A stretch of DNA of 22,032 nt from the IMG/VR virus record IMGVR_UViG_3300025584_000027, one strand, 5' to 3'. The notes beneath the pieces were generated by a model, which saw only the letters and a program-made list of their open reading frames with translations, had not been told where the DNA came from and did not search any database. Origin of the DNA: a virus. Of this stretch, positions 716 through 21,500 are shown piece by piece. The position numbers and the translations under genes were made by a program. Each line of letters opens with the position of its first letter. Within the stretch, counting starts at the first letter, position 1.

Positions 716-1132
716 ATGAGATCAATAATACAATACTTAACTGAATCTGAAAAAGAAGTATATAAGATTCCTATGAAAGATAAAAAGAAAACTAAGAAAC
801 TAAATCCTAAAACAAATCGAATTAAAACTTTTAAAACTAATAAATATTTAGAAACTAACATACCTATAGAACAAAGAACTTTTAAAAATCTTCCAAGATA
901 TGCTGATAAAAAACCTAAAGTCCGGTTTCAAGATTGGTTTAAAATTGATTCTAATGGATGGTCACCTAATGGTAAGTGTTACGGTTATTCACACAGAGCT
1001 GTTCATGGTTTTAAAATAGGTGACAAAATAACATCTGATACTGGTGGTAACGAGGGTGGTAAAGAATTTGTTCTTAAAACTAGAGAACAGGTTCAGGAAA
1101 TGGCAAAGAAATTTGCTAAAAGTGTTTCTTAA
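716..1132 (+). CDS. Hypothetical protein with MRSIIQYLTE N-terminus (candidate head-internal protein)
   Basis: 138 aa; GGAG RBS; Lys-rich N-half and a C-terminal domain with YGYSHRAVHGFKIGD. Confidence 0.8.
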   Translation: MRSIIQYLTESEKEVYKIPMKDKKKTKKLNPKTNRIKTFKTNKYLETNIPIEQRTFKNLPRYADKKPKVRFQDWFKIDSNGWSPNGKCYGYSHRAVHGFKIGDKITSDTGGNEGGKEFVLKTREQVQEMAKKFAKSVS

Positions 1133-1137
1133 ATTTA

Positions 1138-1161
1138 TGTCTAAAACGTTGCGCAAGATCT
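1138..1161 (+). repeat. Boundary motif B, copy 1 (TGTCTAAAACGTTGCGCAAGATCT)
   Basis: Matches CTAAAACGTnGnGnnAGAnCT, seen five times in the window; lies 5 nt after the stop of 716-1132. Confidence 0.75.
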
Positions 1162-1232
1162 TAAGATTTAGAAAAATTAGAAGTAGAGGATCCCCACTCA
1201 ATAGACACATTGTCTAGTGAGTGAGGAAACTT

Positions 1233-1490
1233 TCAGAATAACCCCTTTGCTGTCGCGGTCGGCATCCAGGGGTCAAACCCTGGTTTTCGTTTCTCTTTTC
1301 TCCATTGGGACTTTGACAGTCCCAACAGTTTGCGGGTCTTCTTGACTCTCACAACCTTGGATGTGTTGACCCGAGCCGGGGTGGTCTTCGCAACCGGCTT
1401 CGCAACCGGTTTTACAACCCCCTTCGGAGCCTGTGTTTTACCACAAGCGAATATTTCCTTGTCGAACAATCTCATTACGAACATTCTCAT
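1233..1490 (-). CDS. Small basic Lys/Ala/Pro-rich protein
   Basis: AGGAGG RBS; first gene after promoter motif 1549-1572; KPVAKPVAK repeat; GC-rich codons. Confidence 0.75.
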   Translation of the reverse strand: MRMFVMRLFDKEIFACGKTQAPKGVVKPVAKPVAKTTPARVNTSKVVRVKKTRKLLGLSKSQWRKEKRKPGFDPWMPTATAKGLF

Positions 1491-1548
1491 GTCCTCCTAT
1501 TAAGATTTTATCCATACTTAATGTATGGCTTATTTACTTATATTATTA

Positions 1549-1572
1549 ATTTCTATATTAAAATGGAGAATA
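1549..1572 (-). promoter_or_regulatory. Motif A (putative phage promoter)
   Basis: ATTTCTATATTAAAATGGAGAATA on the plus strand; upstream of ORF 1233-1490. Confidence 0.75.
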
Positions 1573-1592
1573 CAAGAAAATCAAAAATTTCA

Positions 1593-1616
1593 TATTCTCG
1601 ATTTTAGTATAGAAAT
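1593..1616 (+). promoter_or_regulatory. Motif A, divergent copy driving the structured RNA
   Basis: TATTCTCGATTTTAGTATAGAAAT, 23/24 match to consensus. Confidence 0.75.
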
Positions 1617-1624
1617 TGTATAAG

Positions 1625-1960
1625 TGTGGGAAGAAACCCCTGGGAAAGTCTGATGGCTACCGAGCCTGAAGTCTTTAGATTAGGGGTTGGTAACCCCGAA
1701 ATCTTTGAGGGTACCACCCTCACTCTAGGATTGATTGGTTTGGTAACCATGAAGATCCGAAAAGGGTTCATACCCTGATAGGGCTGTAGTTCATACAGTC
1801 GAGTAGAGATAAGTTTCTACTATAAAAATCACAGAAGCGTACTGTATAACGCGCAGATTGTAGATATAATTACAATCGGCAGAAGCAACTGCCTTAACAA
1901 ACGATGCAAGAAAGCATCTAAAAACATCTATTTCTAATTTTTTAATTAGAAGTATTTTTT
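1625..1960 (+). ncRNA. Putative multi-hairpin structured RNA (about 330 nt)
   Basis: Own motif A promoter and terminator; GC-richer than flanks; about 12 short hairpins found by eye; only a 41-codon ORF (1653-1778) with a weak RBS. Confidence 0.65.
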
Positions 1961-1967
1961 TCTTTTT
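1929..1967 (+). terminator. Intrinsic terminator
   Basis: TATTTCTAATT-TTTT-AATTAGAAGTA hairpin followed by a T tract. Confidence 0.6.
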
Positions 1968-2013
1968 ATTAAAAAAAGATATACGCCCATATAATAGAGC
2001 GTATATTATTAAA

Positions 2014-2406
2014 TTATTTCTTTCCTAAAATTATTAATGAAAATGCATCATCTTCATCAACATCATCAAAATGCCCATTCATCCATTCAACACTAGTTAT
2101 CTTAATTTCTCTTTTAATAAGATTTCCTATTAATTTAGAAATTTCATTAAATCGATTGTACAAACTAAATTGTACTGTTCCACCTTTTTTTAAAACTCGA
2201 ATAATATCATCATATTTATGTAGATACGTTCCTACACATTGATTGCTATGTATTTTATCAAATGTATTATCTTTAAAAGGGAGATACTCACCATCAGCAA
2301 ATATAAATGATTTAGGATTTTCTATATAAGACTCAAGTGATAAATCATTATCTATATTAACATAATTTTCTGGTCCATAATTAGCACTACCAATATTAAG
2401 TTTCAT
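2014..2406 (-). CDS. Small class I SAM-dependent methyltransferase-like protein (Methyltransf_11-like)
   Basis: LNIGS (motif I), NIDN, ADGEYLPFKDNTFDKI and IIRVLKKGG follow the typical DA..LPF.D.SFD...RVLKPGG pattern. Confidence 0.75.
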   Translation of the reverse strand: MKLNIGSANYGPENYVNIDNDLSLESYIENPKSFIFADGEYLPFKDNTFDKIHSNQCVGTYLHKYDDIIRVLKKGGTVQFSLYNRFNEISKLIGNLIKREIKITSVEWMNGHFDDVDEDDAFSLIILGKK

Positions 2407-2417
2407 TTAATAACCTT

Positions 2418-2573
2418 TCAGAAATTTACATAATATTTCTTATGAAATTCTCTTTCGAAATTGTTAAAGAATTTATTGACATAAGGTTTGATCAAATGAT
2501 TGACTTGTTTCTTCCACTGGACGAAATCTTGAGTTGACAAGACTGCGTTTTCGTACACTCGGAAATAGAACAT
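2418..2573 (-). CDS. 51-aa hypothetical protein (not in ORF track)
   Basis: AAAGGAGG RBS; MFYFRVYENAVLSTQDFVQWKKQVNHLIKPYVNKFFNNFEREFHKKYYVNF. Confidence 0.7.
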   Translation of the reverse strand: MFYFRVYENAVLSTQDFVQWKKQVNHLIKPYVNKFFNNFEREFHKKYYVNF

Positions 2574-2696
2574 TAGGTTGTCCTCCTTTGATTTGAAATA
2601 ATTTAAAAAGATATACGCTCATAATAGGGTGTGAAATAAAACACGCTCCGAAGAGCATGTATCAGCGTTTTAGACACGGGCTGCTGATCGCACCCT

Positions 2697-2858
2697 TTAA
2701 TTTAAACTTTCAGATGACCGCTGGCGATTCTCGCCAGTCTCATTGTATCTGAACTGACTACATAACGTTCCGGGAACATACCCGTCAACTACTTGACGAG
2801 CCACTTCTTCCTGGGCTTCAATCGATGGCATGGGTAGAACTTTATGACTTATATTCAT
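2697..2858 (-). CDS. 53-aa hypothetical protein (not in ORF track)
   Basis: AAGGAGG RBS; first gene after motif A 2929-2952; MNISHKVLPMPSIEAQEEVARQVVDGYVPGTLCSQFRYNETGENRQRSSESLN. Confidence 0.65.
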   Translation of the reverse strand: MNISHKVLPMPSIEAQEEVARQVVDGYVPGTLCSQFRYNETGENRQRSSESLN

Positions 2859-2928
2859 TTCACTTCCTCCTTCAAGATTTTAAACAAGATGAGAATACTA
2901 GATCATTCTAGTGCTTCTCATATATATA

Positions 2929-2952
2929 ATTTCTATATTAAAATTGAGAATA
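2929..2952 (-). promoter_or_regulatory. Motif A (putative phage promoter)
   Basis: ATTTCTATATTAAAATTGAGAATA; followed on the minus strand by a 5' hairpin (2890-2920) and an RBS. Confidence 0.75.
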
Positions 2953-2968
2953 TATAATTAATTTTTCC

Positions 2969-2992
2969 AGCTCTTCCGCAACGTTTTAGTCA
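2969..2992 (-). repeat. Boundary motif B, copy 2
   Basis: Reverse complement TGACTAAAACGTTGCGGAAGAGCT is 21/24 identical to the copy at 3701-3724. Confidence 0.8.
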
Positions 2993-3017
2993 ACTACTTT
3001 TATAAAGGATCAAAAAT

Positions 3018-3707
3018 ATGAGATCAATAACTAAATATTTAACAGAGTTATCTTTTATTAAGAAAGTACCATTAAGGTTATACTTAAAAAATTATATTTT
3101 ACCAATCTATAATAATTTCGATAAGGGACACGATCAAAGACATGCTGTAGAAGTAGCTAACTTTTGTGTACTGTTATCCAAGAAATTAAACAATGTAGAT
3201 CCGGATGTTGCATATTGTGTTGGTCTAATGCATGATGTAGGACTAAAAAATAATAGAGATTTTCATCATATAGAATCAGGTAAATACATTAGAGATAGTA
3301 ACTTTCTTAAGATGATATTTAGTAAAGAACAAATCAAATTAATTAAAGAAGCTGTAGAAGATCATAGAGCTTCAAATAAAAAATCACCAAGAAATATATA
3401 TGGTAAAATAGTTTCAGATAGTGATAGATCAGATGGTTTAGATATTGATATTTTCATAAGAAGGTGTTGGGGATATAGGGAAAGCTGGCAGAAAACTATG
3501 TCTGATGTTAAAATATTTAACGATATATTTGGGTATCTACCAATATGGATTAAGAAAGTTAAATTTATACTTCCTGAAACTAAAGATCTTCTTAAAAATA
3601 AGTTTAATGAATTAAAAAAATATTCAAAAAATAAAAAACTGTTTTACAATATATGTAAACAGATGAGAAAAGATGGTGTGTTAAAAAGAACTTATGATAA
3701 TGACTAA
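3018..3707 (+). CDS. HD-domain metal-dependent phosphohydrolase with MRSITKYLTE N-terminus
   Basis: GHDQRH...GLMHDVG...HHIES...EDHR...SDSDR gives the H...HD...D metal-ligand pattern. Confidence 0.85.
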   Translation: MRSITKYLTELSFIKKVPLRLYLKNYILPIYNNFDKGHDQRHAVEVANFCVLLSKKLNNVDPDVAYCVGLMHDVGLKNNRDFHHIESGKYIRDSNFLKMIFSKEQIKLIKEAVEDHRASNKKSPRNIYGKIVSDSDRSDGLDIDIFIRRCWGYRESWQKTMSDVKIFNDIFGYLPIWIKKVKFILPETKDLLKNKFNELKKYSKNKKLFYNICKQMRKDGVLKRTYDND

Positions 3708-3724
3708 AACGTGGCGCGAGAGCT
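3701..3724 (+). repeat. Boundary motif B, copy 3 (contains the HD gene stop codon)
   Basis: TGACTAAAACGTGGCGCGAGAGCT; the TAA at 3705-3707 is the stop. Confidence 0.8.
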
Positions 3725-3742
3725 GAAGAGCTAGAAGAAAAT

Positions 3743-3767
3743 AAAGGACCCTTGTAAAGAGTCCTTT
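3743..3767 (-). terminator. Intrinsic terminator between convergent genes
   Basis: AAAGGAC/GTCCTTT 7-bp stem with a U-rich tail on the minus strand. Confidence 0.5.
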
Positions 3768-3777
3768 GGAGGTGGTT

Positions 3778-3954
3778 TTATTCTGGATCTGGAGTCCCCC
3801 TTGACTCCAGAATCTCTGTTGCTTCTTTCCGAACACCTTCGGGAATCCGAAGATGTGTTGTGGCTAACTGCCACAACTTATAGTTTGAAGATTCCTCCAA
3901 ACTACTGTAAAATTTGTGGCGCATGAACGGCTCCAACGCCATATAACTTTGCAT
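3778..3954 (-). CDS. 58-aa hypothetical protein (not in ORF track)
   Basis: AAAGGAGGT RBS 6 nt upstream; MQSYMALEPFMRHKFYSSLEESSNYKLWQLATTHLRIPEGVRKEATEILESRGTPDPE; first gene after motif A 3990-4013. Confidence 0.65.
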   Translation of the reverse strand: MQSYMALEPFMRHKFYSSLEESSNYKLWQLATTHLRIPEGVRKEATEILESRGTPDPE

Positions 3955-3989
3955 TTACATACCTCCTTTAGTAGGTTTATACTATATTA

Positions 3990-4013
3990 ATTTCTATATT
4001 AAAATGTAGAATA
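3990..4013 (-). promoter_or_regulatory. Motif A (putative phage promoter)
   Basis: ATTTCTATATTAAAATGTAGAATA. Confidence 0.75.
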
Positions 4014-4024
4014 CAAGAAAAAAA

Positions 4025-4183
4025 TCATGGATCCTCTCGGACCCATCTACGACAAACCTTTCGATTTGTCTCTTTCTTTTTGTCTTTATGTGGAATGTCA
4101 CTACACGTAACATACCACCGTTTCTCTTTCGGTTTTTCAATAGGATCACCGAAAACCTTTTTGAATAGTTTTGATTTTTTCAT
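4025..4183 (-). CDS. 52-aa basic hypothetical protein (not in ORF track)
   Basis: AGGAGG RBS; ATGA overlap with the upstream gene; MKKSKLFKKVFGDPIEKPKEKRWYVTCSDIPHKDKKKETNRKVCRRWVREDP. Confidence 0.7.
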   Translation of the reverse strand: MKKSKLFKKVFGDPIEKPKEKRWYVTCSDIPHKDKKKETNRKVCRRWVREDP

Positions 4184-4413
4184 GATTCTTCCTCCTTTTC
4201 TAGACAGACGACACAGAGGTTATGAGTTCGATGGACAAATTGTACTGACCCACATTTCTTACATCGTGGGCTGTCCATAACCATTATAAACAATGCATTT
4301 TCTTTTAAATAGTGACCAATATTTTCCAGACTAGTAGTCATCACAATCAATTGATCTCCTAAGTAAGCGGACCAATGATCATTTTCCTCTTTTCGAATTG
4401 TAATGTCTTTCAT
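4180..4413 (-). CDS. Hypothetical protein with C-terminal CxxC-CxxC zinc ribbon
   Basis: RCKKCG...LCVVC; GGAGG RBS; overlapping-gene operon. Confidence 0.75.
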   Translation of the reverse strand: MKDITIRKEENDHWSAYLGDQLIVMTTSLENIGHYLKENALFIMVMDSPRCKKCGSVQFVHRTHNLCVVCLEKEEES

Positions 4414-5357: not shown

Positions 5358-5565
5358 AAAAAACTGAATTTATAAAAACAGTAAAACTATGAGGCACCTG
5401 AATTGGTGTTAGCTTCCCTCACTAAAGCTGGTAATCATTTTTTCATACCCACAGTTGGATACGGACATAAGGTTACCAACCTATATGTCTGACCTATCGC
5501 ATATCTTTTACACCGCGTCCGGTGTGGATACTCTGACGGATAGGATTATCAGAGTCCGGATGTAC
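5358..5565 (-). ncRNA. Putative structured RNA (about 200 nt) with a possible pseudoknot
   Basis: Own motif A promoter; no RBS-led ORF; several stems; loop CCUAUC is complementary to downstream GAUAGG. Confidence 0.55.
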
Positions 5566-5572
5566 ATATATT

Positions 5573-5596
5573 ATTTCTATATCAAAATCTAGAATA
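5573..5596 (-). promoter_or_regulatory. Motif A (putative phage promoter)
   Basis: ATTTCTATATCAAAATCTAGAATA. Confidence 0.7.
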
Positions 5597-5696
5597 TAAT
5601 AAACGAGAATATCAAACCAGAATAAATTCTGAAATGTAAAAATCCGCTATATCCAGTGATATAACAAATATTGGAAAATGCTCTTCATTATATATT

Positions 5697-5720
5697 ATTT
5701 CTATATTAAAATCGAAAAAA
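5697..5720 (-). promoter_or_regulatory. Motif A (putative phage promoter)
   Basis: ATTTCTATATTAAAATCGAAAAAA; no ORF lies between it and the next promoter. Confidence 0.7.
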
Positions 5721-5884: not shown

Positions 5885-5929
5885 CTCTTTCTCCTTTACT
5901 AGAATTTAAAAAAAGTACTAGATTTATGA

Positions 5930-6028
5930 TTATAAAGAGAAGTGCCTTACGGCAACTCATTCTCTAGGATTGGTCTACCAGCTATTATGACCGATAGGCA
6001 TCAAGTGGGCTTTCACCTCCACTAATCC
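5930..6028 (-). ncRNA. Structured 5' leader or small RNA
   Basis: GGAUU/AAUCC closing stem, a GAAA-capped stem and a UGCC-GUAA-GGCA hairpin lie between the promoter and the 39-aa ORF. Confidence 0.4.
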
Positions 6029-6039
6029 TTTATTATATA

Positions 6040-6063
6040 ATTTCTATATTAAAATCGAGAATA
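6040..6063 (-). promoter_or_regulatory. Motif A (exact consensus)
   Basis: ATTTCTATATTAAAATCGAGAATA, identical to 11416-11439 and 11839-11862. Confidence 0.8.
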
Positions 6064-7277: not shown

Positions 7278-7708
7278 TTAACCTCCACATCTTCCGGTAC
7301 CCAAGTTCTTTCTTCCATAGAGTATTTTTCTGTATTTTCTAAATTAACCAATCTAGAAAGTAGGTCATAACAAATGACTGCCATGATTACTTTTAAATTT
7401 TCTAATTTGAATTTTATCTTATAATCATCTAAAATTTCATCAATAGCATTATATTCTTCTTCTACAAACAGTTCAGTCTGTTCAAGAAATTGACGACAAT
7501 CAACATTCTTAAATCTTTTATTCATAACATGTCTATAAGCATCACTACGACATTCAGCAATTATTTTTTCAACACCATCTATTTCTTGAATAAAGAATGT
7601 CTTTTCTGGAAACTGTTCTTTTAATTTTTTCATTCTATTTTGAATATGCTCATAAGATTCAGATTCATCATTATCTACATAAGAACATATTTTATATTTG
7701 TTATTCAT
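7274..7708 (-). CDS. Hypothetical protein
   Basis: AAGGAG RBS; 144 aa. Confidence 0.75.
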   Translation of the reverse strand: MNNKYKICSYVDNDESESYEHIQNRMKKLKEQFPEKTFFIQEIDGVEKIIAECRSDAYRHVMNKRFKNVDCRQFLEQTELFVEEEYNAIDEILDDYKIKFKLENLKVIMAVICYDLLSRLVNLENTEKYSMEERTWVPEDVEVK

Positions 7709-10340: not shown

Positions 10341-10958
10341 ATGGAATATATTTCTGGAGAAGAATTTGTTAAATATCTTGAAAAGAAAGAAATTCCTCCG
10401 GCTCCACCAGAAGGGTGTACTCTTAATGGAAACATACTAGATATTAAATCTATATATCAGTATGGCGTTATGGGAGCGGTTCGAAACTTCGGAATGTTCG
10501 CCATTGTTGATCAAGTGTGGACAACTGAACTTGCGAAATGGATTGATTCCAAAAGATGCTTGGAAGTGATGGCGGGAGCCGGTTGGCTTTCGAAAGCACT
10601 TCAAGAACAAGGAATTGATATTATCCCAACCGATAATGGTAGTTGGGATAAGATTGTTGAGAGACAGATTATCCCTGTTGAAAAACTTAATGGTCTGGAT
10701 GCAGTAAAAAAGTATTCAAATTACGATGTTCTTGTAGTCTCTTGGCCTGATTATGATCGCGAAGAGATTTGTGAGATTTGTCAAGAATGGGGACCGAATA
10801 AGCCAATTATTTATATTGGTGAAAGTATGTATGGTTGTACCGCCTGTGACAAATTCTTTGATCATTTTCAGATTGATCCTAATTTTGATGAAGAAAGTAT
10901 TCCTATGATGGTGTGGACTGGAATACACGATCAAGTTATGATCGGATACTACAAATAA
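10341..10958 (+). CDS. Class I SAM-dependent methyltransferase-like protein (start probably 10341)
   Basis: CLEVMAGAGWLS (motif I), IIPTDN, LVVSWP and YIGESMYGCT; GGAGG lies 8 nt before the ATG at 10341. Confidence 0.7.
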   Translation: MEYISGEEFVKYLEKKEIPPAPPEGCTLNGNILDIKSIYQYGVMGAVRNFGMFAIVDQVWTTELAKWIDSKRCLEVMAGAGWLSKALQEQGIDIIPTDNGSWDKIVERQIIPVEKLNGLDAVKKYSNYDVLVVSWPDYDREEICEICQEWGPNKPIIYIGESMYGCTACDKFFDHFQIDPNFDEESIPMMVWTGIHDQVMIGYYK

Positions 10959-11097: not shown

Positions 11098-11304
11098 TTA
11101 CATTTCGAGAGCTTCAGCCCTCCTTGCATGTCTACGCTGAGCCCGAAGACTCAATTTTTTTACCGGTTTTGCTGCCACTACGGCAGCAGATTTCATATCC
11201 TCAATTTTCTTCTGGCGGGCGATATAATTCGCCCGCTGCATGTTCGACTTCTTTACCCTTGCCAGGACTTCCGGAGTCGGGTCTTCAACTTTTCTTGCAA
11301 ACAT
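11098..11304 (-). CDS. Small basic Arg/Lys/Ala-rich protein
   Basis: AGAGGT RBS; AAKPVKK; GC-rich codons. Confidence 0.7.
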   Translation of the reverse strand: MFARKVEDPTPEVLARVKKSNMQRANYIARQKKIEDMKSAAVVAAKPVKKLSLRAQRRHARRAEALEM

Positions 11305-11862: not shown

Positions 11863-11870
11863 CAAGAAAA

Positions 11871-11947
11871 AGAGGGGAGTTGGATTCGAACCAACAATCT
11901 CTCAATTCTTAAAAAATCGAGTGAGATTCCAATTACTCCACCCCCTC
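11871..11947 (-). tRNA. tRNA-like gene with an 11-nt anticodon loop (isotype ambiguous: Lys-UUU with a 4-nt insertion, or UUA with a 7-bp stem); CCA not encoded
   Basis: Acceptor stem GAGGGGG/UCCCCUC, U8, D arm GAG/CUC with G18G19, anticodon stem CUCGA/UUGAG, 5-nt variable loop, T arm GUUGG-UUCGAAU-CCAAC. Confidence 0.8.
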
Positions 11948-11969
11948 TATTTGTCATATTGTTGAAATT

Positions 11970-11993
11970 ATTTCTATATTAAAATCGAGAAAA
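11970..11993 (-). promoter_or_regulatory. Motif A driving the tRNA-like gene
   Basis: ATTTCTATATTAAAATCGAGAAAA, 22 nt from G1. Confidence 0.8.
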
Positions 11994-11994
11994 C

Positions 11995-12030
11995 AAAAAA
12001 AATATCCACTCTCTATATTAAGAGAGTGGA
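11995..12030 (-). terminator. Intrinsic terminator
   Basis: Perfect 10-bp stem TCCACTCTCT/AGAGAGTGGA with a U tract on the minus strand. Confidence 0.75.
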
Positions 12031-12041
12031 CGATTTATAAA

Positions 12042-13325
12042 TTAATTTACAGATATAGCATCACCAACGTTTATTGTCTTCCAAGCATCTGTTGGTTCTG
12101 TTACTTCTACTTTTGAATTTAACTCTTTATTAATAGTTAGTAATCTTTCATTTTCATCTAACTGATGGTTAACATCAGAATCAAGTTGTTTGACTTTATC
12201 TTTAAGATTACAAACTTCTCTATTAAGAGTTATAATTTTATCTTCCCTTGTTTTAAGTGTTTCTTTTAAAGAATCTATATTAACGCTTTCAATATTTTCT
12301 ATTTTACTTTCAAGAACTTCAATGGTTTTTCTTTGAAGTTTCTCTTTCTCTTGTAGAATATTAAAATGTAATATGAAAGATTCAACCAGCTCACCCATAG
12401 GCATCATTGAAAATTTCTCTAATAAATTACTCAATTTATTCTCAGAATAAGCTTGATCTACATCTTTTTCAGATATGTGTTGTCTTTGTCTTAGTCCCAA
12501 TTTCTCTTCAACAAATTTATTTTCTACATTTATTTCGACTTTTATCTCTTGAGTTTTTTCTGGTTGAATTTCTATATTGTCAATATATTTCAATTTGATC
12601 CATCTAGATGTTTCCGACATCTTTTCAATATATCCTTTTTTCACATATTTATTTATAAAAGAATATACTCTAGAATTAACTATATTTATTTCTTTTTTAT
12701 CTAATTCACCACAATTAATTGTGTTAATAGTCTTTTGCATAAACTCAATTGTTGTAAACATCTGATTTATTTCTAATTGCTCATTAAATACCTTTTTAAA
12801 CAAACCTCCATTAATATTTGCATTTGTAGTAAGATAAATCTTCTTTGAAATAGCATAAGAATTATCTAATTTTTGATATACTTTCTTTGATGTTGATACT
12901 TTCATTTTATCACTAAGTTTCTTAATGGCTTTTGTTTTCAAACAACTGCTTATAAAAGCACTCACAGATGCTTTAAGTTTTTCTTTTTTAAAATCTTTTA
13001 AATCATCTATTTGGGTTAACGAATTTACAATATCATCAACACTAAATATATGATTAATTGATAAATTATTATTAAAAATCAATCTAACTCTATTATTTAT
13101 ATTCATTTTCTCCTCTTTAGTGGTAGGTTTTAAAGTATCTTCAGAAATTAGGTCATAAAAATGAAAACTATTTTCTGTCATTCTATGAGTTGTTCGTCCT
13201 TTTCCATGAGCACTAACTTTCCATACTCCTTTCTTGAGTTTAGACAAAACAGTAATTGTATAACCTTTTTCTTTATTGCGCCATACTTGACCTTCCTGAA
13301 TTTTTGTATCTATTGTTGTTTGCAT
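12042..13325 (-). CDS. Multi-domain protein: beta-rich N-terminal domain, two tandem winged-helix-like repeats, C-terminal coiled coil
   Basis: Internal repeat FNNNLSINHIFS...VSAFISSCLKTKAIKK / FNEQLEINQMFT...VYSFINKYVKKGYIEK; heptad-like C-terminus. Confidence 0.7.
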   Translation of the reverse strand: MQTTIDTKIQEGQVWRNKEKGYTITVLSKLKKGVWKVSAHGKGRTTHRMTENSFHFYDLISEDTLKPTTKEEKMNINNRVRLIFNNNLSINHIFSVDDIVNSLTQIDDLKDFKKEKLKASVSAFISSCLKTKAIKKLSDKMKVSTSKKVYQKLDNSYAISKKIYLTTNANINGGLFKKVFNEQLEINQMFTTIEFMQKTINTINCGELDKKEINIVNSRVYSFINKYVKKGYIEKMSETSRWIKLKYIDNIEIQPEKTQEIKVEINVENKFVEEKLGLRQRQHISEKDVDQAYSENKLSNLLEKFSMMPMGELVESFILHFNILQEKEKLQRKTIEVLESKIENIESVNIDSLKETLKTREDKIITLNREVCNLKDKVKQLDSDVNHQLDENERLLTINKELNSKVEVTEPTDAWKTINVGDAISVN

Positions 13326-15684: not shown

Positions 15685-18600
15685 ATGAAAATTTCAAACA
15701 TAACTTCTAGCAGGATTTCATCATCAAAGATTGTAATTGATGAACCTACAGTTTTCTTAACCTTTCCTGATCCAAATCTACCTATTTGGGAGGTCATATA
15801 TAATACAAATTTTATTTTAAGCAACTGCGAAGCTATTATTAGTGCTGGTGGTATGATTAAATTTATGAGAAGAAGTTTTAACGCAAAAGTACACTCATTA
15901 GAATTCAAGAAAAAGATTATTGAATTAGAGCAAAGTAGTAAAAAATTAAAAGTAGTTAATAACCTCAAACTTAAAGATGCAGATAATAGGAGCGCCAAAT
16001 TTTACTTCTATGATATGGGAGTTTATTCAAAAGCTATTCAGGAGTTTGAAGGTAAATTTGTACCAAAAAAATTAGCTGAAGAATTGTTCATTGCAAGCGG
16101 CAAGATCTATAAGACGATTAAAGACAATTATCCTAGTTACAATGTCGAAATGCTTTTTCTTATGAAAGATGATAAAGGTTTTTTATGGAAGATGTTTGAC
16201 AATCTGAAACAATTTATTCCAATAAATAAACTTAATAAAATAGATTTCTTTGATAAGTTTTGCTACGTCAGCATAAATAAAAGATTGATCCCAGTTATTG
16301 AAAGAGAAAAGGGTAAAAGTTCATATCTAGTTAAGAACATGACTAGAATACCAAAATATGTAGAAGAAGAAAGTATATCTTCTGAAGAACAAATAATAGA
16401 ACCTGCTATTAAATCACATGAGACATCGATGATAACACCTCCATCTTCTGAATCATCTACTAGTACTAGTACTGGTACTAGTATTAATAACAAAGAATCA
16501 GACAGTCAATCAACAGGATTTAAAGGTGTTGTTAAAGGTCTTTCGAAAGAACTTAAAGTAGTTACAAATATTGATAAAGATGGTGAAATTAAAGTTGAGA
16601 TCAATACGCCTCAATTAAAAAGGATTTTAGCTAATTATGATATTAAAGATCAAGTAATTCTTTCGAATGTAAAAGTAGCTATTGATAAACACTTAACAAA
16701 CAATAGAGTGTCGAAAGAAAAGATGACTCGTGAACAAGCAGAAGTTCTTGTTCTTAAAGCTGTTAATAAAACTATTCATGGAACAGATGAACTTCGTGAA
16801 GCATACCGAAATGATCCTAAACTTCTATTTGATAAACTTAAAAAAATAGATAATTATAATACTCCTCTTAATTTTCCACAGTACCAGAACGAAGTGATTC
16901 AACCAAAAAACATTATAGATCTTGATTACACTAGTGGTCAAAATCGACAGAAGCATGAGTTCGATACAGTTGTTCATCAAAATGTTGAAAAACTATTTCG
17001 TATTTTAGAGGACTTTCCAGACTATCCAGTTAAGATTAAAAAGTTTAGTCATGAAATAATCGATACAGATAGTGATCGATTGATTCAATATACTGTTACA
17101 TTACAGAATGTTGGTGGTGGATATTCAAAACCATATGAGATTAAGCTTAATATTCCAGGGCTAGTAAGTGAAAGATATTTTAAAATAAAAGGATCTCATT
17201 ACATTCAGTCGAATCAACAGTTTTTAAATCCAATCACAAAAACTAATCCAAATGATGTTCGTCTTTTAAGTAATTATGCTATTATTAGTGTCCACCTAAC
17301 TAACTTTAGGTTTAATTCAGCTAATATTAGAGAGTATCTTAATTACATTAAAATCAAACATCCAACATTCATTAAAGAAGAAACTGAAGATTATGTAACA
17401 TTTTTTAATGGAGACAAAATAGGTCTTACTGGTAATCTCGTTTACTCTAACGCCGACGGAAGTAAGAAAGTAGAAATAGATCCTAATACAAATAAATTAA
17501 TAGATCTCGCGGGACGTTCTAGACTTGGTATTACAAAATATGAATATCAATTAGAATATCTTTTTAATAAGTTAAAAGATATAGACCCAAGTGAAACATT
17601 AAGTAAGACTAAGTTAAAGATACCTTATTTAGAGATATATTTAGGTGGTATAAAGTTACCATTAATCTTATACTTGTGGTCACAAAAAGGTCTATTAATA
17701 ACTTTAAATGACGAAAGTATTGATTACAGTATAACTGATAATAAAGTAGCCGATAAAGCTAGTTTTAGTATTAAAACTAATAAAACTCAGTACTTGAATA
17801 TTTTTCCCAAGGGCCTTAGACAAACTTGTATGGTGAATGGATTACTAAAGCTACAAGGTATTCTTAAAGACAAAAACATTAAAGATCTAAATAATCCTGA
17901 GAGTTGTTATAATTTAATCTCAGAATATACCGCCTCTAGTGGTTCAATTAAAATGATTACTTTGATGACAAAAAATCAAATTGATCCTATCACAAAAGAT
18001 TTACTAGAGTTTGGTGGTCATTCTACAAATTTAGTTAAACTTGTAAGTAAAGATATGATTGATATGCTTTTCAATCAACCACCAAGTAATCTTGCAGATC
18101 TATCTATTTATCGTACTCGTCTGAGTGAAATGATTTTTTATTTACTTTATAAACAAATTGCTATGTCTCATAATTATTATAAAAGTAAAGTATTTGGTTA
18201 TGAAGATCAAGAAGCAAAAGTTGAGTTACACGAAAACTATGTTATTCAAGGTCTTATTTCTGATGCTGGTGTTCTTCAGAATGACGAACCATTTAATCCA
18301 GTTCAAGAAATTGCTTTAGCCTCAAGAGTTATTAAGTCAGGCAAAGGCGGCGTACCTAGTAAATTTTCTTTTAAGACATCTCATAGAAATATTCATCCAA
18401 GTAATTATGGTAATATTTCTGCAGCCAGTACATCCGAATCAGCCGATGTTGGTTTGGTATCATATCACACTTTAACACCGTCAATTATTAATCAATACGG
18501 AAACTATGGTATAAAAGATATTAAAAGTCTTAAACCATGGCAAATACTATCTCTTGATGAATCATTAACACCTATGCAAAATAGCATGGATGGAGATAGA

Positions 18601-19548
18601 CTTGTAATGGCTCGCACACATGCAACTCAAATTGTACCAGTAGAAAATAGCGAGATACCATTAGTTATGACTGGTGCTGAACATTTAACTGGACAATTAG
18701 CAAGTACTAGATTTATTCAACGAGCTAAGTATGGTGGTAAAATTGTAGAAGTTGTTCCGAATAAATACATGTCAGTCAAGTATGATAATAATATAATAGA
18801 GAATCTAGATATAGTACCTCGAATAAGTAGAACTAAAAGAGGTAGTTTTATTCAGCTTGAAATGGATACCATGAAAACTGGAGATCTATTTAAGAAGAAT
18901 GATACACTCGCTTGGACCAAGAATTTCAAGAATGGTGTTTACACAAGCGGTAAAAACGTAGTTGTGTGTTTCATGAATTACATGGGATTTTGTCATGAAG
19001 ATTCATATGTAGTTACAGAAGATCTTGCAAATAAAGTTGAAAGAACCATAGTAAAACCAGTTAGTATAGTAATACCACCAAATGCTAAAGTATTAAATAT
19101 TATGGAAAAGAAAAATGCAGAAGTGTCTTCAACAGATGTTTTATTAGAGTTTACACATGATTTTGATCTTGAGAGTTATATTCAATCACAAGGTGATAAT
19201 TTCGATGAAGAAGATCTAGAGAAATTATTACTCAGTCAAAGTGAAAACTCAGTGAAACTTCTTGCTGGTTTATCCGGCGAATTAATAGGTATGAAGATTT
19301 ACTTGAATACTAAAAAAGAAATGGATCTAAAACTAGTCAATTTACATACAAAGATGGTAGCTGAAGATCGTAAGACTATCAAAATGTTGGGTGAAAATCA
19401 AACAAAAGATGGTAAGTTATCTAGCTTTGATAATATGCAAACTGATTATTTTAAGATTGGTAATCAAAAGTTAAAAGGCGGAAAAGAGTTCTTAGGAGCT
19501 CATGTTGTATTTTATATTAAAGAAAAGCATCCACTTATGTTGGGCGAT
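15685..19548 (+). CDS. rpoB: Phage multisubunit RNA polymerase beta-like subunit, exon 1 (1288 codons)
   Basis: Divergent beta motifs: YFKIKGSHYIQSNQ, IHPSNYGNI..ST.ES..VGL, DGDRLVM...QIVP, GKNVVVCFMNYMGFCHED; ends at LMLGD. Confidence 0.9.
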
Positions 19549-20536
19549 GAGTAATTTTGTCGCCATTACATGGTAACATGTAATTAGAAAATCTGGTGAA
19601 TTCGGTGAATCTCCTAACACTTTAGGATAATACCGAGCCAAGCTTTTTAGAGACTGCTAATCTCTAAACTGAAGGTGTAACGACTATCTCGAAAGAGAGT
19701 ACACTCTAAGCAGAGTGGAAGCGCCAGACATCCAAACTAAATTAAATCTAATAAAATAATGTGGAAGGAACAATATGACAAGACAATATAATCATGATCA
19801 TTTAATTGGAACTGTATATGGTTCATTAGAGGTTATTGGAATAGGACCAACGAATAAACACAGAAAGAAGTTATTACTTGTAAAATGTTTAAAACATCCA
19901 GAAGTAGATCCATATTATGTAGTGAAACAAAGTCTTGTTAACGGATCATCTAAAGGTTGTGTTGAATGTAAAAGAGATCTCCATACTACACATGGAAAAT
20001 GTAATACTAGAGTTTATCATGCTTATAAAAGAATGATATGTAGAATTAAAGATATTTTTGACAAAGATTATGAAAATTATGGTGGTCGTGGTATTGATAT
20101 GGACCCAAAATATGATCCAGATTATAATGATCAGGGATTAGAATTTGCTTTTAAAAATTTTTATAATGATATTGGAGATTATCAACATCCATTAACATTA
20201 GATCGTAAGAATAATAATCGTGGTTATTGGAAAGACAATATGAGATTAATTACTATTACAGAACAATCTCATAATAGAAGAAATAATACTTTTACACAAG
20301 AGATTGTTAATAATATTCGAAAAGATTATGATACAGGTAATTATAGAAACAGAGATCTAGTTAAAAAATATAATACAACTAGTACAAATATTAGTAGAAT
20401 TGTATTACGAAAAACTTGGAAATAATTTTTAATTATGTTTGGATGATGATATAGTCTGATCTGCATAGTAATATGCAGCTGATGTGGTAACCATTACACA
20501 TCGAAAAGGATCTAGCGAATCCTTTTGAACATCATG
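19549..20536 (+). mobile_element. Self-splicing group I intron (IA2-like), 988 nt, with a homing endonuclease in L8
   Basis: P1 GGCGAU/GUCGCC with a U-G pair at the 5' splice site; P10 AUUUU/AAAAU; P3 UCUGGUG/CGCCAGA; P7 GACUA/UAGUC; P7.1 and P7.2; P8 CAUCCAAAC/GUUUGGAUG; terminal G at 20536. Splicing restores GD-KICNRFGSKG in frame. Confidence 0.95.
19775..20425 (+). CDS. Intron-encoded HNH-type homing endonuclease
   Basis: HG...RVY...YGGRGI...F..D.G...LTLDRKNNNRGY..DNMR...EQ..NRR, typical of phage HNH-like homing endonucleases; located inside the P8 loop. Confidence 0.85.
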   Translation: MTRQYNHDHLIGTVYGSLEVIGIGPTNKHRKKLLLVKCLKHPEVDPYYVVKQSLVNGSSKGCVECKRDLHTTHGKCNTRVYHAYKRMICRIKDIFDKDYENYGGRGIDMDPKYDPDYNDQGLEFAFKNFYNDIGDYQHPLTLDRKNNNRGYWKDNMRLITITEQSHNRRNNTFTQEIVNNIRKDYDTGNYRNRDLVKKYNTTSTNISRIVLRKTWK

Positions 20537-21385
20537 AAAATATGTAATCGTTTTGGCTCCAAAGGAGTAATTAGTAAACTAATTGAGAAAGAACAAGAAC
20601 CTTACTCAGAAGTGACAGATCTGAAACCAGAAGTATTTATCTCTCCAATTTCGATTTTTGGAAGAAAAAACATTCCGTTTCTTAAGGAAATCTATATCTC
20701 CAAAATATTCTATTTTCTACAAGAACAATGTGCTGAAATGGCGAAAATTCCTAAAACATCTACAAGTAAAATCATTAAGAAAATCTTAGGTGTTTATGAA
20801 TTATTAGCAGCTGAAAAAGTATATAAAGATGTAGAAAAATTATTAAATAAATCATCTCAATTAAAATTAAGAGCTGATATTAAAAGTAAAAAATTACAAT
20901 TAAGACTTATTATAGAACCGTTTACAAATGTAAGTATGTCTAGGATTAAACAAGCTGCAGAATTAATAGATATTCCTCTAGACGAAAAGGTTTACATTCC
21001 AGAGTTAGGTGCATATACTGATGTACCTGTACCAGTTGGTATTGGTTATTATCAATTTATGGAACATATATCAGAAGACGTTGCTAATATACGTGGAGCT
21101 GATAATTATACTAGTTTAACTAGACAACCCACAAAAGGTAAACAAAAAGGTGGAGGTCAAGCTGTTAGTGGTCTGGATATTTATGCTTTACTTTCTTTGA
21201 ATGCAGATAAATGTTTACAAGAACTTTTAACAGTAAGATCTGATGATCATGTTAGAAAAAGAAAAGTTTATCTAGATATTCTAAATAATGGAGAATTAGT
21301 TGATATGCCAAAAGACACCGGAGAAGGAGGAACTAAAACTCAGTTTGACCTTTATATTAAAAGTATGGGATTAGAAATTTCATAA
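20537..21385 (+). CDS. rpoB: RNA polymerase beta-like subunit, exon 2 (282 aa)
   Basis: KICNRFGSKGVISK, VGIGYYQFMEH, LTRQPTKG...GGGQ and ELLTVRSDD correspond to the C-terminal beta motifs. Confidence 0.92.
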   Translation, partial: KICNRFGSKGVISKLIEKEQEPYSEVTDLKPEVFISPISIFGRKNIPFLKEIYISKIFYFLQEQCAEMAKIPKTSTSKIIKKILGVYELLAAEKVYKDVEKLLNKSSQLKLRADIKSKKLQLRLIIEPFTNVSMSRIKQAAELIDIPLDEKVYIPELGAYTDVPVPVGIGYYQFMEHISEDVANIRGADNYTSLTRQPTKGKQKGGGQAVSGLDIYALLSLNADKCLQELLTVRSDDHVRKRKVYLDILNNGELVDMPKDTGEGGTKTQFDLYIKSMGLEIS

Positions 21386-21406
21386 TCTTAATTTTAATAT
21401 AGAAAT
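21383..21406 (+). promoter_or_regulatory. Motif A overlapping the rpoB stop codon
   Basis: TAATCTTAATTTTAATATAGAAAT, 21/24 match. Confidence 0.7.
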
Positions 21407-21419
21407 ATTATTAATGTAA

Positions 21420-21500
21420 AAGGTCATAGCCGGCCTTAATAAAATTGGCTCACTCAAAGATTCCGATTGGCGGTTTCGGAGGGTGAGTCAATTTATTTTA
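21420..21500 (+). ncRNA. Putative small RNA (about 80 nt) between two motif A promoters
   Basis: A short 5' hairpin, then a 14-bp stem (21442-21455/21481-21494) with an inner TCCGA/TCGGA stem and a U-rich end; no ORF. Could be only a terminator. Confidence 0.45.

Follow-up and report, generated by a model that had tools for sequence, protein, structure and literature searches.

A stretch of about 350 nt in the genome of an uncultured phage, set between a promoter and a terminator-like hairpin, raises the question of what it encodes: an RNA that acts as such, a small protein, or a cassette with no selected function. The stretch runs from 1612 to about 1962 on the plus strand (hereafter the RNA unit) of the window, by which we mean the whole 22,032-nt DNA that was analysed (IMG/VR record IMGVR_UViG_3300025584_000027). 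The original prediction, made from the letters alone, described a promoter-driven RNA with about twelve hairpins and matched pairs of complementary loops, which would self-assemble or titrate a host protein. We come down, at close to even odds, on the unit being a gene in its own right that specifies a highly structured non-coding RNA of this length.

Source phage and its promoter cassettes

The window comes from an uncultured, AT-rich jumbo-type phage with its own multisubunit RNA polymerase (RNAP). It has a GC content of about 25-30% and encodes a divergent beta subunit of the multisubunit type (PHROG 3148, E 1.8e-60; Pfam Rpb2 domains), only 22-27% identical to those of the jumbo phages phiR1-37, S6, LPJP1, and SPN3US, as well as ClpP, an HD-domain protein, and a Tad6-like protein. 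The same phage is present in many metagenome assemblies, and metagenomes also hold RNAP-beta relatives at 40-90% identity. It was absent from 50,697 GenBank phages searched by blastn, and megablast of the whole window against GenBank phages gave a 55-nt HNH fragment as the sole match. Scans of IMG/VR did not find the phage either.

The RNAP-beta gene of the window, 15685-21385(+), reads as two parts of 1289 and 286 aa that lie about 970 nt apart, with a 216-aa open reading frame (ORF) inside the gap; in most close relatives the subunit is a single protein of 1534-1594 aa. Such a split is consistent with an intervening sequence at 19555-20524, either an intron or intein-like, and bases 19668-19724 share about 90% identity with HNH endonuclease genes found in T7-like phages. 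When the window was scanned in sliding segments of 120 nt, the lowest fold z-scores (-7 to -14) fell at 12001-12120(+), 10561-10680(-), 11161-11280(+), and 4021-4140(-). A dispersed motif of about 24 nt (TGnCTAAAACGTTGCGCAAGAnCT), distinct from the promoter motif described next, occurs at 1138-1161(+), 2969-2992(-), and 3701-3725(+), at the 3' ends of plus-strand genes and, as an inverted copy, upstream of the HD gene. The palindromes AACGTT and TTGCGCAA lie within this motif.

The motif TTCTCnATTTTARTATAGAAATT is dispersed through the window in 15 copies with three or fewer mismatches, against 0.02 expected, and has no sigma-70 -35 element. Because it is kept in three relatives (L014-L016, 62-69% RNAP-beta identity), we read it from these comparisons as a lineage-wide signal and almost certainly a promoter. 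The copy at 1595-1617(+) (TTCTCGATTTTAGTATAGAAATT) has no mismatches and points into the RNA unit, transcription of which would start at G1612 of TATAG. Back to back with it lies a second copy without mismatches, at 1548-1570(-), which is divergent and drives an 85-aa gene at 1233-1490(-); the repeat search returned the two promoters as a 25-nt inverted repeat.

Eleven of the 16 tabulated promoter copies are followed within 40-116 nt by a ribosome-binding site of the form AGGAG(G), GGAGG, or GAGGT and an ORF starting with ATG, whereas the copy that starts the RNA unit at 1612(+) has no site of these types within 420 nt. Among the coding cassettes are three micro-genes under the same promoter: the 85-aa gene just mentioned (U1), in which AGGAGG and an ATG stand downstream of the promoter, and the Shine-Dalgarno (SD)-led U3 (53 aa, 2697-2858(-)) and U4 (58 aa, 3778-3954(-)). 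All three are compositionally foreign and rich in hairpins, their GC3 being 0.37-0.59 where core genes have 0.10-0.21. In L018, U4 is present as a divergent allele that differs at about 40 sites and retains both the ORF and the hairpins.

One copy of the motif, at 11969-11991(-), drives a tRNA at 11870-11948(-), which was found by ARAGORN and by Rfam (47.8 bits). ARAGORN reads it as a suppressor with anticodon UUA, which reads UAA. Recoding of TAA by such a tRNA was considered as a means of lengthening ORFs and dropped, there being no coherent gain; wholesale recoding is not evident. Other promoter-driven units without an SD site, all with the same motif at their start, lie at 5370-5577(-), 5595-5701(-), 5895-6044(-) (a leader), and 21402-21500(+). 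Paralogy of the RNA unit with those starting at 5577 and 6044 was rejected, since only promoter-proximal bases and one 11-mer align. The relative L016 (69% RNAP-beta identity) has, at 7500-7689(-), an RNA of about 190 nt that is likewise promoter-driven, with ends that pair (UGUGAGGA and UCCUCACA) and a T-arm of canonical form (GGUGGUUCGAUUCCACC). Its appearance is that of a tRNA-like or mini-tmRNA gene; ARAGORN makes no call there.

The phage lineage thus carries uniform cassettes of a promoter plus one payload, be it a single micro-gene, a tRNA, or an RNA without an SD site, and this layout gives a simple rule for locating more such RNAs.

Borders and predicted fold of the RNA unit

At the 3' end of the unit is an intrinsic-terminator-like element, 1929-1967(+), made up of an AU-rich stem of 11 bp (1929-39/1944-54; -8.5 kcal/mol, z -4.1) and the tract U7CU5 behind it, and transcription would end here. 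A consensus scan missed the element because it demands three G-C pairs. The convergent 130-aa gene beyond has a terminator of its own at 2006-1979(-). The claim that the unit possesses its own promoter and terminator is supported by these two elements.

The region 1610-1965 folds on the plus strand to -115.6 kcal/mol, compared with -80.2 +/- 5.4 for dinucleotide shuffles (z -6.6), in agreement with the strong structure that had been predicted. On the minus strand the value is -100.5 kcal/mol (z -4.5), and both the 5' and the 3' sub-domain are more stable on the plus strand. The helices contain ten G·U pairs and a single C·A opposition, and we therefore read the pairing as that of a plus-strand RNA, not of duplex DNA or of a transcript in the opposite direction.

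Strand preference also bears on whether the locus could act at the DNA level, be it as an origin of replication or through clustered palindromic protein sites (GGTAACC, GGTACC, TCTAGA-like), at a switch of gene orientation and GC skew. Its modules are quasi-palindromic, cumulative GC skew peaks at about 1100-1900, and the unit adjoins the divergent promoters and an AT-rich stretch at 1920-2013. A site in duplex DNA would predict neither the excess of G·U over C·A nor a plus strand that is more stable by 10-15 kcal/mol; moreover, promoter and terminator frame the unit exactly and the repeat search revealed no tandem iterons. We regard a DNA element as highly improbable and treat the unit as an RNA in what follows.

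The 3' half of this RNA (1778-1925) is predicted to be a string of six perfect hairpins, for which the minimum free energy (MFE) structure and the centroid are the same (z -5.2) and pair probabilities are 0.71-1.0. From 5' to 3' these are a 7-bp hairpin with loop GUUCA (1782-1800(+), 0.93-1.0, MFE and centroid agreeing), an 8-bp hairpin with loop UAAG (1802-1821(+), placed at 1803-20 in the original prediction; 0.99), a 4-bp hairpin with an 8-nt loop (1837-1852(+), 0.71), a 7-bp hairpin with an 8-nt loop (1856-1877(+), about 1.0), and the hairpins GGCAG-AAGCAA-CUGCC (1878-1893(+)) and GAUGC-AAGAAA-GCAUC (1903-1918(+)), both at about 1.0. Upstream of the string is the hairpin AGGG-UUCAUA-CCCU (1763-1776(+), 0.65-0.69), and near the 5' end of the unit the hairpin GGG-AAGAAA-CCC (1628-1639(+)), at only 0.35. 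Of the twelve hairpins first described, seven are thus supported at 0.65-1.0 and one at 0.35, but the four that carried the matched loops fall to about 0.01.

Three hairpins of the unit, those at 1628, 1878, and 1903, share an AAGNAA hexaloop. The expected number is 0.012, and none of 2000 shuffles of the unit reached three. We take the repeated hexaloop as a hint of a protein-binding RNA, and a better one than the complementary loops.

Those loops belong to the 5' domain, 1641-1760(+), for which folding gives an imperfect rod of 45 bp (MFE -48.6 kcal/mol, z -4.5; -37.9 kcal/mol on the minus strand). The rod spans 120 nt, includes six G·U pairs, and is interrupted by small internal loops only, the largest being 3 nt opposite 4 nt. 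When only local pairs were allowed, the best fold of the same bases reached -30.0 kcal/mol. The four hairpins at 1655-66, 1683-97, 1707-21, and 1736-49 have a pair probability of about 0.01 each and are paired with each other instead. Their loops, in the alternative fold, would be UACCGA, UUGGUAA, UACCA, and UUGGUAA, mutually complementary over 5-6 nt, and the base pairing of the rod consists of exactly the complementarities that had been drawn as loop-loop matches. The region is a tandem duplication, with a period of about 53 nt, of a unit made up of an ACC-hairpin, a linker, and a GGU-hairpin; the repeat search found it as a direct repeat (1684-1700 and 1737-1753, spacing 53). The 5' side of every stem in it is rich in G and the 3' side rich in C, so that the sequence agrees with the rod as well as with the hairpins. 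Part of the 18 kcal/mol gap could be made good by two kissing complexes, and for this reason we prefer, on the energy model, a single rod to four kissing hairpins, with the latter as a live alternative. The matched UGGUA and UACCA loops are therefore present as complementary sequences, although the hairpins said to display them are disfavored by the model. The further matches proposed between UUCA loops and UGAA linkers did not hold up, being 4 nt long and no more than expected by chance. A shared 8-mer, GUUCAUAC, is likewise at about chance level.

Self-assembly, in which the two UUGGUAA loops would kiss the UACCA and UACCGA loops within or between molecules in the manner of phi29 pRNA, ROOL, or GOLLD, depends on these hairpins. 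The 5-6 nt complementarities are real, the 53-nt duplication preserved the loops, and local hairpins would presumably form first during transcription. The element GGUUGGUAACC, found at 1685 and with one mismatch at 1738, recurs at 5471-5481(-) (three matches against 0.12 expected), which places it, together with a UUACCA partner, in the second RNA without an SD site at 5370-5577(-). In that RNA too, GGUUGGUAACC is predicted to pair in cis, with the downstream UUACCAGCU. Given that nearest-neighbor folding favors the intramolecular rod by about 18 kcal/mol, with the four hairpins at about 0.01, and that the Rfam models of pRNA, ROOL, and GOLLD do not match, we consider self-assembly decidedly unlikely. 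As a lead rather than a result, we take the UUGGUAA loop to have the exact form of the tRNA-Thr(GGU) anticodon loop, Y32-U33-GGU-A37-A38.

Coding potential and distribution

One ORF of 41 aa, at 1653-1778(+), is open in the unit as the original prediction had stated (MATEPEVF...; 50 aa if started from the GTG at 1626), and lies almost wholly inside the rod. The unit might thus be the mRNA of a small protein with a long structured 3' untranslated region, possibly of the type I toxin kind, in which a tightly folded mRNA with a sequestered start site encodes a short and partly hydrophobic peptide and an antisense RNA acts in cis or in trans. In the peptide of the unit, whose gravy is +0.45, KIRK comes after a hydrophobic stretch (TLTLGLIGLVTM); the stretch is only about 13 residues long, and on the opposite strand of the unit there is no phage-type promoter for an antisense RNA, a sigma-70-like match at 1848-1819(-) being within chance expectation. 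The sequence GGGA stands 7 nt upstream of the ATG and may be functional as a weak ribosome site, but the 11 other promoter-driven ORFs all have AGGAG(G), GGAGG, or GAGGT. In the predicted rod the AUG (1653-55) is paired with 1748-50.

The frame occupies only a third of the transcript, and by our own estimate an open frame of 41 codons would arise at this composition roughly 1 time in 7. No homologue was found among 5.8 billion proteins, and hence none in which the frame is conserved; there was no PHROG or Pfam match, and in none of the 12 assemblies with listed gene calls does the frame appear as a gene. We conclude that it is probably not translated. The small-protein reading nevertheless stays a serious rival, because the coding sister cassettes U1, U3, and U4, driven by the same promoter, are GC-rich and structured too, U4 being folded as strongly as the RNA unit (z about -8), so that structure and GC content do not separate coding from non-coding here. 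On balance we consider an mRNA doubtful and retain the non-coding RNA as the preferred reading.

The 373-nt locus 1595-1967 is identical, letter for letter, in 14 loci that represent 13 distinct contigs from different samples. Parts of the flanks vary among the same contigs, namely the 3' end of the Tad6-like gene, the 5' end of U1, and U4. This invariance is not specific to the RNA unit, since the whole stretch 1489-3383 is invariant in these contigs.

Searches for diverged copies covered several collections. The RNA unit had no homologue by blastn in the 50,697 GenBank phages; exact-pattern and protein-anchored scans of IMG/VR yielded no diverged homologue; JGI metagenomes scanned for the promoter plus GGTTGGTAACC returned the same phage and noise only; and GTDB genomes scanned for the promoter gave single matches attributable to chance. 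Comparison of the RNA with L014-L016 and further sequence of the same phage by blastn, nhmmer, and a covariance model of the rod produced self matches only. Routes through neighboring genes were no more informative: the adjacent 130-aa protein led to no useful relatives, a relative of the HD protein at 84% identity occurs on contigs of about 1 kb only, and the contig of an RNAP relative at 86% identity ends short of the region of the RNA unit. Two apparent relatives were discarded, a divergent "133-aa" variant because its contig is chimeric and an HD homologue at 43% identity because it sits in an unrelated operon. As judged from these sequence searches, the RNA family, if it is a family, is so far confined to one phage species.

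So narrow a distribution would also suit a decayed cassette, a former micro-gene or an imported GC-rich fragment that is still transcribed and has no selected function. Promoter-plus-payload cassettes that vary from strain to strain make up the region as a mosaic, and other units without an SD site fold no better than chance (z -2.2 for 5370-5577(-) and -0.4 for the 6044 leader). Six perfect hairpins, a 45-bp rod, and a loop motif repeated three times are far from random, however, and the strand-specific G·U bias suggests selection on the RNA. The locus is also identical in 13 samples in which neighboring cassettes are variable, although that identity extends over all of 1489-3383. We find a functionless remnant quite unlikely.

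Neighborhood, possible role, and comparison with known RNAs

A gene for a Tad6-like protein of 138 aa lies at 716-1132(+), 480 nt from the RNA unit (PF25188, E 2.7e-10, above the gathering score). Tad6 is an inhibitor of type I Thoeris, and its presence marks the neighborhood as a likely anti-defense region. The RNA unit is probably a new, lineage-restricted non-coding RNA in this accessory or anti-defense neighborhood.

If the RNA itself is the gene product, it would be expressed together with the surrounding accessory or host-takeover cassettes, the Tad6-like one among them, and the likeliest way for it to act would be multivalent protein binding, as a decoy, a sponge, or a scaffold for a ribonucleoprotein (RNP). 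We put this mode of action forward tentatively, as a possibility with the chances against it. Binding would take place at the three AAGNAA hexaloops, perhaps also at the UUGGUAA element, which occurs twice. The strongly basic U1 protein (85 aa, pI 11.4, 22 K+R), the gene of which is transcribed divergently from the back-to-back promoter, is a candidate partner. That the RNA serves as decoy or RNP scaffold for this neighbor, or for a host RNA-binding or defense protein, through the AAGNAA and possibly the UUGGUAA loops is slightly more doubtful again. The earlier suggestion of protein titration gains some support from the triple hexaloop; its naming of a defense effector was a guess from the neighborhood alone.

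Almost all that is known of how phages counter defenses and take over their hosts concerns proteins. RNA-based cases known so far are few, among them RNA anti-CRISPRs and pseudo-ToxI. Should the multivalent-decoy reading be true, the unit would be an RNA-based host-takeover or anti-defense factor beside a Tad6-like gene, and the locus would add a promoter-driven hairpin-array RNA in the accessory region of a phage that is abundant, uncultured, and equipped with its own RNA polymerase. As a candidate the locus is concrete, being about 350 nt long with clear borders and the gene of a candidate partner protein adjoining.

As the original prediction had anticipated, the RNA unit matches no Rfam family, and it belongs to no described one. 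A search of the whole window with Rfam 15 at gathering thresholds found only the tRNA (11871-11947), and a permissive search of 1200-4200 gave chance-level matches, the best over the locus being IRES_Pesti, whose score of 16.7 bits compares with a threshold of 180. Identity with a tRNA or tmRNA was rejected, since the only gene that ARAGORN detects in the window is the one at 11870-11948, outside 1612-1962. A mimic of a CRISPR repeat was likewise set aside, given that only short words resemble the I-F repeat and the stem is flipped. Antisense targets elsewhere in the window were also discounted; no complement there is longer than 11-12 nt, a length close to chance expectation.

Several known RNAs resemble the unit in part. 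6S RNA, at about 180-200 nt, forms a rod whose large central bubble imitates an open promoter; the rod of the RNA unit has small internal loops only and no central bubble, and no 6S model matched even at E<=10, so we rejected this identity. With phi29 pRNA, ROOL, and GOLLD the unit shares being a phage-borne structured RNA whose loops could potentially pair with each other. It differs from them in being a 350-nt rod plus hairpin string whose complementarity is predicted to be satisfied in cis, and the corresponding models (RF00044, RF03087, and RF01998) gave no match to it.

Lambda-type boxB elements are hairpins bound by arginine-rich N proteins, with pentaloops (GAAGA or GAAAA) in a GNRA-like fold, and are found with boxA in an mRNA leader. 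The likeness lies in short hairpins closed by G-C pairs, purine-rich loops (AAGAAA and AAGCAA), and a position beside the gene of a small basic protein (pI 11.4), whereas the loops of the RNA unit are hexaloops starting in A and there is neither a boxA nor a set of downstream genes to antiterminate.

CsrB and RsmZ are like the unit in overall plan, each being a non-coding RNA of a few hundred nucleotides that runs from promoter to terminator and consists of short hairpins in series, among which one loop sequence recurs, here AAGNAA three times. In contrast to them, the unit is phage-borne, has no GGA or ANGGA in its loops, and has three repeats rather than about 7-22. A sponge of the CsrB/RsmZ type was rejected on these grounds: GGA occurs only three times, fully paired at 1643 and 1728 and spanning the stem-loop junction of the 5' hairpin at 1629. 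With its short perfect hairpins, repeated loop, and A-rich linkers, the RNA nevertheless resembles a sponge or scaffold RNA more than one with a compact tertiary fold.
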